DNA of 64,000 nucleotides from Eledone cirrhosa (Eukaryota), in contig OZ024741.1 of assembly GCA_964016885.1 (NCBI GenBank), positions 213,218,001 through 213,282,000 of the forward strand, given 5' to 3'. This document shows, piece by piece, positions 823 through 47,930 of the stretch. A model generated the notes under the pieces. It was not told the DNA's origin and searched no databases. It saw nothing but the letters and a program-made list of their open reading frames with translations. A program made the position numbers and the translations under genes. Position 1 is the stretch's first letter, and every line of letters starts with the position of its first letter.

Positions 823-1125
823 TGGGAATCAGTAAAATCGAATCTCTGGCGGTCTGCAAGTAATTCGGTCTACTTATATGAAGTGATGGGTTAGCGAAGC
901 ACTCGATAAGATAGGTCTCAGAGTTATAACATACTTTAAATAGCTTGACAAATCGGACATTGTGGTAGGCCAAACTAACACACAATACATACCAAAGCAA
1001 TGAAAACACTAATCAGGTTGAGAAAAATAGACCTGGACAAATCAGACGAACGTTTGAAATGTTTCTCTGACTCCGAAATCAAATATCACAGAGGAATCAG
1101 TTTATCAACAGGTCTTCGTTCTGGT
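823..1125 (-). mobile_element. Diverged member of the ~610-bp HHR-bearing non-coding retroelement family
   Basis: Colinear similarity blocks to 47115-47925 and 26928-27798; 3' end joins (TA)n; contains the HHR at 1029-1115. Confidence 0.7.
1029..1115 (-). ncRNA. Type I hammerhead ribozyme, U3:A8 core variant
   Basis: AGACCUG-UUGAUAA-a-CUGAUUCC..GGAGUCAG-a-GAAA-CA..UG-UC^CAGGUCU: 7-bp helix I, 8-bp helix II, GUC site. Confidence 0.8.
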
Positions 1126-1391
1126 TAGGATCAGGAGTGATAAAATATGTTGCTGCTCTCCCGGCTGCTAATCGTATCTATATTTATCACGTGTTCCGGC
1201 ATTTTTTTTTTGAGTGTATGTCCGTGGGTGAGAGGATGTGGTGGAATGCTGGGTAATTTCCTTGTGATGTAGTTGATTCTTGGGAGCGATGTCCAATGTG
1301 TGTAATCCGTGGTTGGGTTGGTCGGAAGAGGGGAGTATATATATATATATATATATATATATATATATATATAGAGAGAGAGAGAGAGAGA

Positions 1392-1887
1392 GAGGGTGAA
1401 GTTGGAAATAGCATGGAAAATACATTTAAGGGTCTGTTTTTCTTTTGTTATCCTTTCTTTGATTCGTCAAAGTGACATTATTGAACAGATAACATTATTG
1501 AAAAAATGAGAGGGACAATTCTTTTTAAAAAAAGTTTTATAATGTATATTAAGTATTACCAGCTTCGATGTATTATTAAAATTCATCTTATCAAATGTTG
1601 AGTATTGAAATAAAAATTAAAAACAATTAATAAGAGTTAAAAACCAAAAAATTAAAGATTTAAAATTAAGTAAGTTTTCTTCCATCTTTCTTGCTCAAAA
1701 TTTGGCTGGAGAATGAGTTCTTGGTGATAGTGAATATAGCATCAGCTGTGTTTCTTCACAGAACAAAGTTGTTTTGGGAAACATCCTGTAAATATGTGTG
1801 TGTATATCTGATTGTGTTCCGTGCTATTTCCAATTTCACCTTTTCTCTATATCCACTGTTTTGTATAGAACACTTACTTCCGTTTTC
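1392..1887 (-). mobile_element. Decayed PLE pseudo-LTR-type element with short inverted ends and a degenerate U3:A8 HHR (~1553-1600)
   Basis: Inverted repeat ggtgaagttggaaatagcatggaa / ttccgtgctatttccaatttcacc. Minus strand reads UUGAUAA-GAUG..CAUC-GAAG-cugg-UA; related to 28964-29011. Confidence 0.55.
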
Positions 1888-2060
1888 TATATATATATAT
1901 ATATATATATATATATATATATATATATATATATATATATATATATATATATATATATATATAAATATATACTTTTCCCTTTATATATATATATATATAT
2001 ATATATTTATATATATATATATATATATATATATATATATATATATATATATATATATAT

Positions 2061-2195
2061 ATAGGGAAAAGTATGACCCCGACGAAAAGTATGCCGTCGG
2101 GTCATACTTTTTCCTATTACCAACTCTACTACCCTAAGTATTGAGTACTCTAATGCATTATGGTCCATCTGGTTCCTTACCAAATCTCCTTCGTT
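2061..2195. repeat. Fold-back pLTR tail fragment between (TA)n tracts
   Basis: Hairpin 2061-2117; the arm matches 38808-38833. Confidence 0.6.
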
Positions 2196-2599
2196 ATATA
2201 TATATATAAATAAATGGAGGAGAAGGAAATACATTCAAAAACAAATTTTACTCCTTACACAGTGTTTTATCTAGGCATAATATATATATATATATATATA
2301 TATATATATATATATATATATATATAAATATATATATATATATATACATATGTTCAAATTTAAAACATATATGTAGAGTGAAAAGAGAATAAATAATTTA
2401 CGAAGCATTTAGCATTTTGTACACGTATTTAGAGCAAATATTCTCAAATGATATATACTACTTTCTATCTACTACATAAATCTTTTAAATTTAAATAATT
2501 GATGTTATATAGGAGACGATCGACTTTCGTCAAATCGGACCGAGGGAACAATGTTTCCGTTGGTCTTTCCAATTGCTAATACTATCTATCGGTCGCAAC

Positions 2600-2727
2600 T
2601 CCAGGTAGAAGGAGCAACGTGAAATAAAGTGTCTTGCTCAAGGACATAACGCATCGCCTGGTCCAGGAATCGAACTCACAACCTCACGATTGCGAATCCA
2701 ATTCTCTAACCACTCAGCCACACGCCT
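2600..2727 (-). mobile_element. tRNA-derived SINE with CORE-like domain
   Basis: A box TGGCTGAGTGG, B box GAGTTCGATTCC, then tgtccttgagcaagacactt (CORE-like); second copy at 14316-14558. Confidence 0.85.
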
Positions 2728-44850: not shown

Positions 44851-45074
44851 TTTATTCAGTTACCGTCTACACAATTTCATACTTCAGCTGAATGTTATAC
44901 ACACACACACACACACACACACACACACACACACACACACACATATATATATATATATATATATATATATATATATATATATATATAATCAAGGGAAAGC
45001 ATTTATTAACTTGCCATTGAACCACACTTGCATACGGTCGGACTATACTGTCGTATGTGTATTATTTACATGTA

Positions 45075-45665
45075 GGAATCACCAGTCGACCTTTAGGTAC
45101 CCGGACAGACGTTTATCCACGAAACACGCGAGCCAAGTATAGTCCCTCAAGGACTCAAGTATAGACTACTCCATTCAATGGAAAGCCATCACTAAGTCCA
45201 AGACATACGCAAGGGAAAATCCGTCGTGTGGACTATGTATTGATGAACGAATAAATATTCTAAAGATATTATGCAATAGTGGTTGCCTAAACACGAGAAT
45301 TGAATTCTTCACACGTTGTCCACACGTCTCGAAACACCTCTTGCATACATACAAAGCTCCGGATTGAATTACAACAACATCATAATTTTCTTATCAACTA
45401 GATACTTTTCGGACTTTCGCAGTTATCTCCCTTACATCTGTCGCACGCATTTTAGTATTGCCTGTGTGAAGTGACCGGGTTCTGCGCATGCGCGTTCGTA
45501 CGGTTGTTCTTCCTGTTCCGTATAACCATGTTCATTACGAGCTTAGAATCCGCTAAGGTGAAACAATTGTTCTCGGTATGGTGAACTAAATCTTGTGTAA
45601 CCACTTCTACCTAAGTCGGCCCATGGACTGAGTGCTCTACCACTACGGATAGTACCTTTCAAGGT
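45075..45665 (+). mobile_element. PLE 3' fragment (GIY-YIG end + pLTR), same family as 23620-25008
   Basis: Aligns with 24475-25008; decayed HHR at 45538-45575. Confidence 0.88.
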
Positions 45666-46239
45666 ACAGTGTGGAGTGTTTGGAAATATAAGGAAAACAC
45701 AAACAAAGGACATATCCCCTCTTCAGTTGTCTGCTGTGAGTCTCCGACGTTTCGATATATATATATGTATATTGTTATACTTGGGGAAAGTCATATTGTT
45801 ATAATATTGCCAGAAGTAATAACAGAACATACGCACTGTTTGGGTTGGTTTACGTTTCTGTATCTTTTATATCTCCATGGTAAATTTATTGGGCAATCAT
45901 CGTTTATCATTGATTGACCAACGGTTAAAAATACAGATATAAATATATATATATATATATAATTTATCAAAATTCTTTCGTTGCACATCTGCAACATCAT
46001 CAGTGGTACTATTATGTTCCTTCCTATTGTATTGTATGTAATGTCTACGCCATTTTCATTTTATTTATTTATTTTTAACCAAGTATAACAATATTTGTTT
46101 CGAAACACGATTTCATATCAAAAACCTTGCAAAACAAATTTATATATATATATATATATATATATATATATATATATATATATATATATATATATATATA
46201 TATATATAAATAATAATAATAATAATAATAATATTTATA

Positions 46240-47100
46240 GTTATATATATAGTATAAACAACTATAAACAGGAAGGTCAGTAATTTCTTAATTACCTTAT
46301 TACCAGTAAGAGAAATACCTCAATGTATGAACATCAGTTGTTTTACAGAGCAGTTAAATAAATAAATTATACAATTATCAAAGTTGTGTTCAAATCATTT
46401 AATAGCTGACAATCGTTTCTTCCAAACTCTCGTTCAAATATAGTCTATGAATATGAATTCATTAAGACTAATTTACAATCCATTGCTCTAACTAACTTAA
46501 AATACTCAATATAAACATTAACTAACATTTAATTCAACATATGTCATGGAAAAGTCTGCAAAAACTGTATGTTTCTCAACCCACATTAATCCGAACACCA
46601 TAAACATCCAACATCCACCATAGACTCTAATACATTAACACAATTGCTCTAACTGCAGTATTTATTCATCTTTATATGCATAATAGCTTTGCTTGTCTCC
46701 TTCTCATGTATATGACTTACGCAGTCACACTATCCACACGCCTGCATATGAATTGTTACTGCACTCTTCCTTTCTCAAAACTGCTGCCTCTTTAATATTT
46801 GTTTTAACTGTTGCATGTATTCCACTCCGTGCTTTGATTTTAATTTTAATTTTGATTTGAATTTGAATTTGAATACACTTCTCGTAAAATATGTCACATC
46901 CATTCCTCCCTGTAAATACGAAACTGTTGCTCACAACATCAATTTCTTTGTATCTATATTATTGTTCAGTTGAATAGGAGGTTAATTATATGTGGAAACA
47001 TTGATAATGCTCAGATGACTCCAAACGAGAGTTTGGAAGAAACGATTGTCAGCTATTAGATGATTTGAACACAACTTTGATAATTGTATAATTTATTTAT
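46240..47100 (+). mobile_element. Solo 3'UTR/pLTR of the PLE at 49960-53910, with inverted tail
   Basis: 46436-47100 is the inverse of 50090-50797; 46240-46435 matches 49970-50160; HHR at 47009-47053 (CAGAUGA core). Confidence 0.88.
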
Positions 47101-47114
47101 ATATATATATATAT

Positions 47115-47930
47115 AATTCAGCGAGAATCGTATTTCGGCTGGTAGAAAAAGCGAAACGAAACGCAAAATCGTAGACATGCTGGCAGCTGGCAAGCGCTCA
47201 ATAGTTAAAAATCCAGAGCTAAACAAAATTTTAAAACGCCATACAAACTGAAAAAGTGTTTAAGAAAGCAATAACCACCTAAGCCATAAAACAAATCAAG
47301 CTAAACAGGTCAAACAAAATAAATGATAAATCCTGGAACCATATGGAACTGGTGGTAAAATCCAAATACAGGGTTTCTATAACACCTAAATCAATAATAC
47401 TGTCTGCTGAGAACTAAGCTTTCAGCATAAAGATCGAACAAGGAATATCACGTTATCAACAGGTAATTCTGCTCTGTAACCAGCTTTGCGATGACGCAGA
47501 GCATAGTAAACACACATGCGTAAGTCACAAGGGGAAATTCCCCATATTTTGGCAAAGCAATTCAGTATGTGTATATCATACAAAAAATTGCATAGATAGC
47601 AAAAATCGAATAAGCACTCAACCAGGTAGTTTTAAAAAATAAACGTATGCAATTAATCTGTCAATAGAATTATTAACAGGCTACTTGTAAGACTCGGGAG
47701 ATTAATACAAATATAATTCAGCGAGAATCGTATTTCGGCTGGTAGAAAAAGCGTAACGAAACGCAAAATCGTAGAAATGCTGGCAAGCGCTCAATAGTTA
47801 AAAAACCAAAGCTAAACAATATGTTAAAACGCCATAAAAACTGAAAAAGTGATTAAGAAAGCAATAACCACCTAAGCCAAAAACAAATCAAGCTAAACAA
47901 GTCAAACAAAATAAATGATAAAAACCTGGT
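47115..47930 (-). mobile_element. ~600-bp HHR element (subfamily A), 1.35 tandem units; HHR at 47332-47464
   Basis: 47115-47330 is repeated at 47715-47925; ACCUG-UUGAUAA-c-GUGAUA..UGUUAU-a-GAAA-CCC..GG-UUC^CAGG. Confidence 0.82.

Follow-up and report, generated by a model that had tools for sequence, protein, structure and literature searches.

A 64,000-nt stretch of the Eledone cirrhosa genome (contig OZ024741.1, positions 213,218,001 to 213,282,000; hereafter the window) holds several copies of a dispersed 610-nt element without an open reading frame (ORF). We give a probability of about two in three to the reading that this element is a retrozyme without long terminal repeats (a non-LTR retrozyme), whose RNA is predicted to cleave itself and circularise and would be reverse-transcribed by the enzyme of a Hydra-clade Penelope-like element (PLE). 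Its copies combine a (TA)n target with a fixed 3′ end and a ragged 5′ end, the pattern of a non-autonomous Hydra-clade PLE, and near that 3′ end they carry a hairpin, a cis element shared with autonomous Hydra families. A first-pass annotation of this DNA had called the family retrozyme-like, non-coding and mobilised in trans. The type I hammerhead, the head-to-tail repeats and a GC content below 45% bear out the first term; the second agrees with the lack of a conserved ORF, and the hairpin shared with Hydra PLEs, together with the (TA)n ends, makes the third probable.

The seven repeat loci of that annotation all exist, with refined spans, and sort as it had proposed into three groups, A, B and C, of one superfamily, with units of 609-613 nt where it had given ~610 bp. 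Subfamily A is represented by a copy of 1.43 units at 26927..27798 (+), with a unit junction at 27276 and another repeat replacing the 3′ 87 nt from 27799, and by an A-type 3′ fragment at 22866..23086 (+) that begins just 3′ of the predicted cut. A copy of subfamily A2 (79% to A, 1.4 units) lies at 47105..47941 (-), its 5′ end at the second-lap predicted cut site. The B copy at 35103..35934 (+) comprises 1.36 units of 612 nt and has its fixed 3′ end at (TA)n; two B 3′ fragments lie at 3254..3390 (-), with the hairpin at 3331-3359, and at 23104..23204 (-), the latter sharing a (TA)n tail to tail with the A fragment at 22866..23086. Subfamily C contributes 0.6 unit at 823..~1199 (-), in which the helix II arm has a 39-nt deletion. 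A fourth subfamily, E, came from a random stretch and has a unit of 620-650 nt. Groups A, B and C show no BLAST match to one another; once set in phase by the 3′ end, however, their full units can be aligned over the whole length (z of 9.8, 13.3 and 6.6 against 200 shuffles) with 346-376 of 612 positions identical, and subfamilies are ~55-80% alike across the superfamily. The GC fraction of the units is 0.35-0.37, and the strand bearing the hammerhead is U-rich.

The insertions have a strict polarity. Copies share one fixed 3′ end, and in 83 of the 90 loci fetched a TA run comes after it; the 5′ end is variable, with TA at the 5′ joint in 76 of the 90. This 3′ end lies within the unit, at a UAUA-like site some 220-250 nt downstream of the predicted cut, and copies run seamlessly through it, head to tail, for up to ~3.5 units. 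Most dispersed copies span 0.2-1.5 units. Among the 90 loci, which were query-selected, 66 are longer than one unit, and the terminal repeat differs in length copy by copy. Two whole hammerheads fit in 7 of 85 distinct loci and in no window copy. Successive laps were compared in 81 loci, overlapping duplicates and four rearranged or window copies being excluded. Non-majority letters were common to two laps of one locus in 22/100 (A), 33/72 (B) and 24/40 (C) cases, and same-letter sharing with other loci was only 4%, 13% and 18%, respectively. No recurrent difference between upstream and downstream laps was found in these loci; letters private to a locus yet shared by its laps, without lap-specific differences, fit one template unit, read repeatedly. 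The unit closes on itself, with no exit into an ORF in 115 loci (90 of A, B and C; 25 of E). No ORF is conserved, and a coding role is ruled out, as the longest ATG frames (20-127 aa) differ between subfamilies and none is kept between them.

The hairpin reads RCTC-N10-45-GAGY and then VCT, and its closing pair is either G-C or A-U. Of 14 retrozyme ends, 9 have it, 72-93 nt upstream of the 3′ terminus; of 7 Hydra ends, 4 (from four families) have it, 42-58 nt upstream of theirs, and none of four Neptune ends does. Its rate by shuffle chance is at most 0.01. Three of the Hydra families were later, independent matches. The B version, GCTC..GAGC-CCT, which is shared with Hydra PLEs, lies at 35834..35862 (+), with its repeat copy at 35222-35250; A2 has the 3′ motif at 47193..47219 (-), and C has ACTC..GAGT-GCT, the version closed by A-U, at 898..924 (-). 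A second B hairpin copy at 35398..35431 (+) stands just past the priming site in the unit. PLE-2, described below, also has a second hairpin in this position, and the unit would therefore resemble a Hydra circle stripped of its ORF. Six published Hydra consensi from the supplement of PMC8557442 were inspected by eye. The hairpin is exact in three of them (Hydra-2_Amil, Hydra-2_Ajap and Hydra-1_Ajap, the last having it twice, at the start), Hydra-1_Crog has a compensated variant, and it is absent from Hydra-1_Amil and Hydra-1_Obim, whose consensi stop a short way past the hammerhead. In 360 kb of arbitrary DNA we counted 30 hairpin matches as compared to 12 for the reversed pattern, and for 20 of the 30 a TA run followed at a distance of 31-99 nt; the corresponding shares were 15.5% for random places and 2 of 12 for the reversed controls.

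Hairpins of this form also stand in other short repeats of the window, at 2123-2149, 19144-19186, 28099-28125, 38985-39007, 57263-57298, 59018-59060 and 60743-60780 (+) and at 23659-23681 (-), many such hairpins lying directly before a TA run; these repeats are likely further Hydra-dependent non-autonomous families. Folding of the retrozyme 3′ domain, for example 35795-35934 (+), suggests a three-way junction around the shared hairpin, with a second hairpin before the priming site.

Candidate partners lie in the same window. PLE-2, a broken Hydra-clade ORF at 36256..38390 (+), represents the candidate partner clade; an inverted piece of pseudo-long terminal repeat (pLTR) with a canonical hammerhead adjoins it at 36156-36246 (-), and the 3′ end of a PLE-2 pLTR, with a hammerhead remnant, lies at 41237..41409 (+) and contains the shared hairpin at 41330-41353. 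A further PLE-2 pLTR piece with a canonical-core hammerhead was noted at 13170-13344 (-). A homologue search with the PLE-2 protein returned 1,292 relatives. The Hydra-type families show the marks RWK, DKT and CxCX5C, as defined in section 11 of PMC8557442, insert in (TA)n, number 25,611 and 45,228 candidates, and have relatives with open frames of 714 and 832 aa. The rival partner, PLE-1, is a broken Neptune-type element (DKS, CX4CxxC) at 20034..22775 (+) that ends in (TA)n without the hairpin; its pLTR is A-rich, with a minimal CUGAAGA hammerhead. A search for an autonomous element bearing the retrozyme hammerhead, which covered 10 regions of Neptune elements, 10 loci of PLE-2, five additional Hydra 3′ regions and a set of 23 3′ regions, found none. 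Other Hydra-type remains in the window are broken Penelope ORFs at 51563-53614 (-), to which the 45,228 first-look candidates and the relatives with 832-aa open frames belong, and at 23793-24648 (+). Short PLE-3-type Hydra 3′ ends occur at 46913-47082, 50104-50273, 53731-53900 and 46376-46434; they have a hammerhead with a CCGA/CAGA-type core and an extra A before GAAA, and they end ~35 nt after the cut.

The hammerhead is, from its computed structure, of type I with helix I open, one per unit. Its shared anatomy is a 5-bp helix I, YUGANRA, one unpaired base and a helix II of 6-8 bp, which is extended through an internal loop into a long stem and followed by A-GAAA; helix III, of 2-4 bp and likewise extended by a stem, leads to GUC and back to helix I. 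The core halves are 74-80 nt apart, and the helix III arm measures 24-88 nt, the 88-nt arm being that of E. We found the cores UUGAUAA, UUGAGGA, UUGACGA and CUGAUAA, none of them the canonical C3-G8 core with short loops. In the window, the B hammerhead at 35559..35694 (+) has UUGAGGA (U3.G8), extended helices II and III and a predicted cut after 35689; the A hammerhead at 27514..27644 (+) has UUGAUAA and a predicted cut after 27639; that of A2 lies at 47327..47468 (-), and that of C, again UUGAUAA, at 1029..1115 (-), with a predicted cut between 1036 and 1035. The corresponding matches of model R1 are 35555-35698, 27510-27648, 47327-47468 and 1027-1117. The first-pass annotation had counted four full hammerheads. 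Four copies do span the whole motif, but three are damaged relative to the family: the 27514 copy has a helix I mismatch (ACAUG for ACCUG), the 47-kb copy a C-U mismatch at the base of helix III, and the 1029-1115 copy lacks 39 nt of the helix II arm. The insertions of 20-60 nt that it had placed in the loops are present as extra length, which folds as extended imperfect stems instead.

Covariation of the helices, as first proposed from the window copies, was borne out in a set of 12 copies, each of a different variant: of its 186 cells, 94.6% were paired, as compared to 84.4 ± 1.5 in shuffles (0 of 500 as high) and 21-44% in slid controls, and both sides had changed in 7 of 16 helix pairs. 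The shuffle count is not a probability, since the 12 sequences are related. RNAalifold, unaided, recovers helix II and its extension and not helices I and III; the free fold of an A copy yields the hammerhead. One earlier inference failed. The U3:A8 pair had been taken as compensatory, yet the 3:8 cell holds U-A seven times, U-G three times and C-A once, never C-G. U3.G8 occurs in B and E, and CUGAUAA (C3.A8) in 14 of 25 family C hammerheads; 13 of these belong to a younger subclade, which is marked by 9 linked diagnostic sites and is less diverged (1.2% vs 1.9%). These counts and the subclade rule out compensation, and U3 is a family trait. The expectation that standard descriptors would miss the motif proved sound: its U3 core and 74-80-nt spacing lie outside the published canonical and minimal descriptors, and Rfam gave no hammerhead match for A, B or C at E ≤ 10. 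As a control, Rfam also missed the canonical-core Hydra hammerhead of the window, and over the whole window at E ≤ 1 the best 150 of 202 matches were only microsatellite-driven microRNA matches. The folded 3′ domain and a conserved GGGG..CCCC hairpin, suggested by folding upstream of the hammerhead, likewise had no Rfam match.

The 5′ ends of the copies leave a footprint at the predicted cut. Thirteen second-lap 5′ ends fell within 30 nt 3′ of it, where the stop rate outside this interval predicts 3.8 (P ~0.0002), with 5′ ends taken as the query starts of top-scoring copies; the A cut site was set one base too far 3′ in this count, which is unaffected. In an independent set of 19 unselected copies and 5 read-throughs, 4 ends were observed vs 1.3 expected (P 0.04), with none in the 30 nt on the other side of the cut. 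Three events would each be consistent with such a pile-up: run-off where the 5′ end has been cleaved, stalling at the joint left by ligation, or stalling at helix I.

From these data the following cycle can be proposed. A rare copy holding two whole hammerheads would be transcribed, and the long-armed hammerhead, with its stable helix III, is predicted to cut after GUC as a monomer, the 610-nt piece then being ligated. Cleavage is probably slow because the core is U3.A8, U3.G8 or C3.A8. A Hydra protein with reverse transcriptase (RT) and GIY-YIG domains would bind the RCTC..GAGY-VCT hairpin and nick a (TA)n tract, and complementary DNA (cDNA) synthesis would begin internally, at the UAUA site 75-95 nt past the hairpin. 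To judge by the DNA pattern, the cDNA would run a variable distance, often more than one lap, would frequently halt just 3′ of the cut, and would be joined to the target at TA/AT microhomology. Internal initiation by the RT and AT-rich nicking have been described in vitro for a Poseidon PLE (PMC11167929). A broader version of the proposal is more tentative, and we consider it less likely than not that all of it holds: the family may be old, still-amplifying 610-nt circular RNAs with a hammerhead active as a monomer despite U.G or even C.A at 3:8, and the hairpin, so far unnoticed, may be the RNA recognition signal of the Hydra clade in animals ranging from corals to sea cucumbers, exploited in this genome by many non-coding families.

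Several observations weigh against a self-cleaving, Hydra-dependent retrozyme. The hairpin definition was drawn up with A, B, C and PLE-2 already in view, and its exact motif is missing from 5 of the 14 retrozyme ends (single decayed copies, near matches) and from 3 of the 7 Hydra ends. Of these three, one is a near match and two are of the PLE-3 type, in which little sequence follows the hammerhead. In an incomplete sampling of Hydra and Neptune ends, no pLTR could be aligned to the retrozyme profile. The footprint window was picked after viewing the data, the copies were top-scoring matches, and 30 of 56 stops begin at TA/AT, so that microhomology contributes to the 5′ ends. Taken in isolation, the hammerhead regions have only a small folding advantage over shuffled sequences (z -0.3 to -2.2). 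The core has moved off C3-G8 and the youngest C subfamily has C3.A8; fast cleavage may therefore be dispensable for amplification. With the Poseidon element, insertion still takes place when the hammerhead is mutated, and the RNA chiefly used as template is uncut (PMC11167929). This last group of points feeds the main rival, an unlikely though serious alternative in which a Hydra-dependent element uses an uncut linear multimer as its template, the hammerhead is weak, protein-assisted or nearly dispensable, and no circle forms. It would sit well with the C3.A8 core of the youngest C subclade, with the cut site being read through in most copies, with insertion in vitro without a hammerhead, and with the report that 8 of 9 Xenopus retrozyme dimers stayed uncut (10.64898/2026.07.22.740005). 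It does not account as readily for the retention of helices I-III, UGA, GAAA and GUC across subfamilies only 55-60% alike, for the constant unit length in A, B and C, or for the accumulation of 5′ ends at the cut, and the lap-specific differences expected from a master multimer are lacking.

Mobilisation by Neptune or Naiad elements in place of Hydra appears improbable. Neptune elements likewise end in (TA)n, PLE-1 is very abundant, with 18,530 candidates and frames as long as 1,282 aa, and has its hammerhead at a similar distance from the 3′ end, and Naiads target (TA)n too; however, in the comparison of Hydra and Neptune ends the Neptune 3′ ends are A-rich and devoid of the hairpin, whereas the retrozyme strand is U-rich, as are Hydra ends. 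We consider it quite improbable that the copies are truncated pLTR pieces of an unsampled autonomous Penelope element. Penelope pLTRs do carry hammerheads and partial tandems, and scoring covered the best 40 matches per query, but the unit is self-closing, without ORF exit in four subfamilies, and forms seamless multimers. Spread at the DNA level, as a satellite or by Helitron-like rolling circles with the hammerhead a chance look-alike, is highly improbable; the tandem units and low fold z-scores are what it would offer, against which stand the fixed 3′ and ragged 5′ polarity, the dispersal in TA tracts and the strand-specific covariation. A plant-type LTR retrozyme was ruled out: helix I is open, the copies end in (TA)n and the terminal repeat length is variable. 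The Hydra-mobilised retrozyme remains our preferred reading.

The family is widespread in this (TA)n-rich, 3.0-Gb genome. First-look searches gave 3,165 candidates for A, 2,898 for B, 2,075 for C and 2,940 for E, figures that are not copy numbers because only the best 40 per query were scored. An exact 25-letter pattern of the A core had 484 genome matches vs 0 for its reversed control. A sample of 40 stretches of 10 kb each, 36 of them distant from the window and 4 adjoining it, contained 4 fragments, ~1 per 100 kb. Copies are therefore denser in the window than elsewhere, and the whole genome probably holds on the order of 10,000 of them or more. The window flanks and random stretches also contained variants with 65-82% likeness to A. 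Copies of B are 93-99% alike, which argues for recent amplification. Near-identical B loci also occur as inverted pairs tens to hundreds of kb apart (G000:C2:384676373-384935967 and C3:234954365-234985586), likely segmental duplications. A metagenome pattern scan gave 0 matches. Comparison of B with contigs of four runs found related sequence in two organisms, a result that has no bearing on expression.

Other repeats share the window. An ORF-less repeat at 39189-40390 (+), unrelated to the 610-nt family, has a period of ~1,014 nt, ends in (TA)n and bears a canonical-core hammerhead at 40072-40199 with a helix II arm of ~90 nt. It has relatives in stretches L018, L027, L096, L113 and L045 and a related hammerhead in L141, and is probably another retrozyme family. 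A canonical-core hammerhead at 19472-19554 (-) recurs in L096 and L124. An inverted repeat at 28856-31327 has microsatellite-rich arms of 991 nt (87%). The RT-like frame at 55616-57124, without a Pfam match, we take to be a long interspersed nuclear element, RTE/L2-like by eye.

The suggestion that the family might be undescribed stands in part. No description of the family or of the hairpin was found in the literature, outside Dfam, Repbase, most subscription journals and preprint supplements. A 2017 paper reportedly dealing with small Penelope hammerhead variants might hold either of them. The U3-A8 pair, non-LTR retrozymes and the Penelope link, in turn, have already been published. U3-A8 is known in natural hammerheads (PMC3088659) and in ~1,300 Schistosoma Penelope-type motifs, which also have a long helix II whose foot carries a bulged base (PMC4209133); non-LTR retrozymes of 51-972 bp have been attributed to a Penelope origin in a survey that reports Hydra elements from a coral only (10.64898/2026.07.22.740005). 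What is new here is the hairpin common to the retrozyme and Hydra PLEs and the cores that are not paired at 3:8, not U3-A8. The fixed (TA)n 3′ end, the Penelope ORFs of the window and the hairpin shared with Hydra were absent from the first account. Neither "hairpin" nor "stem-loop" occurs in the main text of PMC8557442. The published link between retrozymes and Penelope consists of co-occurrence and Xenopus pLTR homology, with the mobilising clade at issue; a hairpin at a fixed distance from the priming site offers a direct experimental handle on the partner and could assign many unclassified TA-inserted repeats to one. Hammerhead censuses using CUGANGA or short-loop descriptors undercount, and natural U3.G8 and C3.A8 cores provide material on how much cleavage retrozymes need.

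Among known systems, plant LTR retrozymes resemble the family in their size of 600-800 nt, lack of coding capacity and hammerhead, but none of their type III hammerhead, LTRs, primer-binding site and polypurine tract, 4-bp target-site duplication or high GC is found here (PMC4918200). Hydra-clade PLEs share (TA)n insertion, a 3′-proximal hammerhead in which helix III is full, a frequent extra base before GAA and the RCTC..GAGY-VCT hairpin; unlike the retrozyme, they code for RT and GIY-YIG, their cores are canonical CUGANGA and their loops are short, and some Naiads have half-core motifs with long spacing (PMC8557442). Penelope hammerheads have in common with ours U3-A8, a long helix II with an unpaired base at its foot, a short helix I and a model of insertions longer than a unit from circles. 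The metazoan motifs described there are minimal, with almost no helix III, dimer-dependent and with G10.1-C11.1, whereas helix III is long here, an extra A precedes GAAA, and U3.G8 and C3.A8 cores occur (PMC4209133). The closest likeness is to animal non-LTR retrozymes, which are likewise non-coding, low in GC and head-to-tail, with one type I hammerhead per unit, and likewise co-occur with PLEs (PMC7229834; 10.64898/2026.07.22.740005). The units here measure 610-650 nt as compared to 170-400 nt in the animal retrozymes tested, with up to 972 bp in the survey; the U3 core, 74-80-nt spacing and 24-88-nt helix III arm depart from theirs, as do the mostly 0.2-1.5-unit (TA)n copies, the single fixed 3′ end and a cis element that points to Hydra. 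By most testable features the family nonetheless appears to be, and would work as, an animal non-LTR retrozyme.

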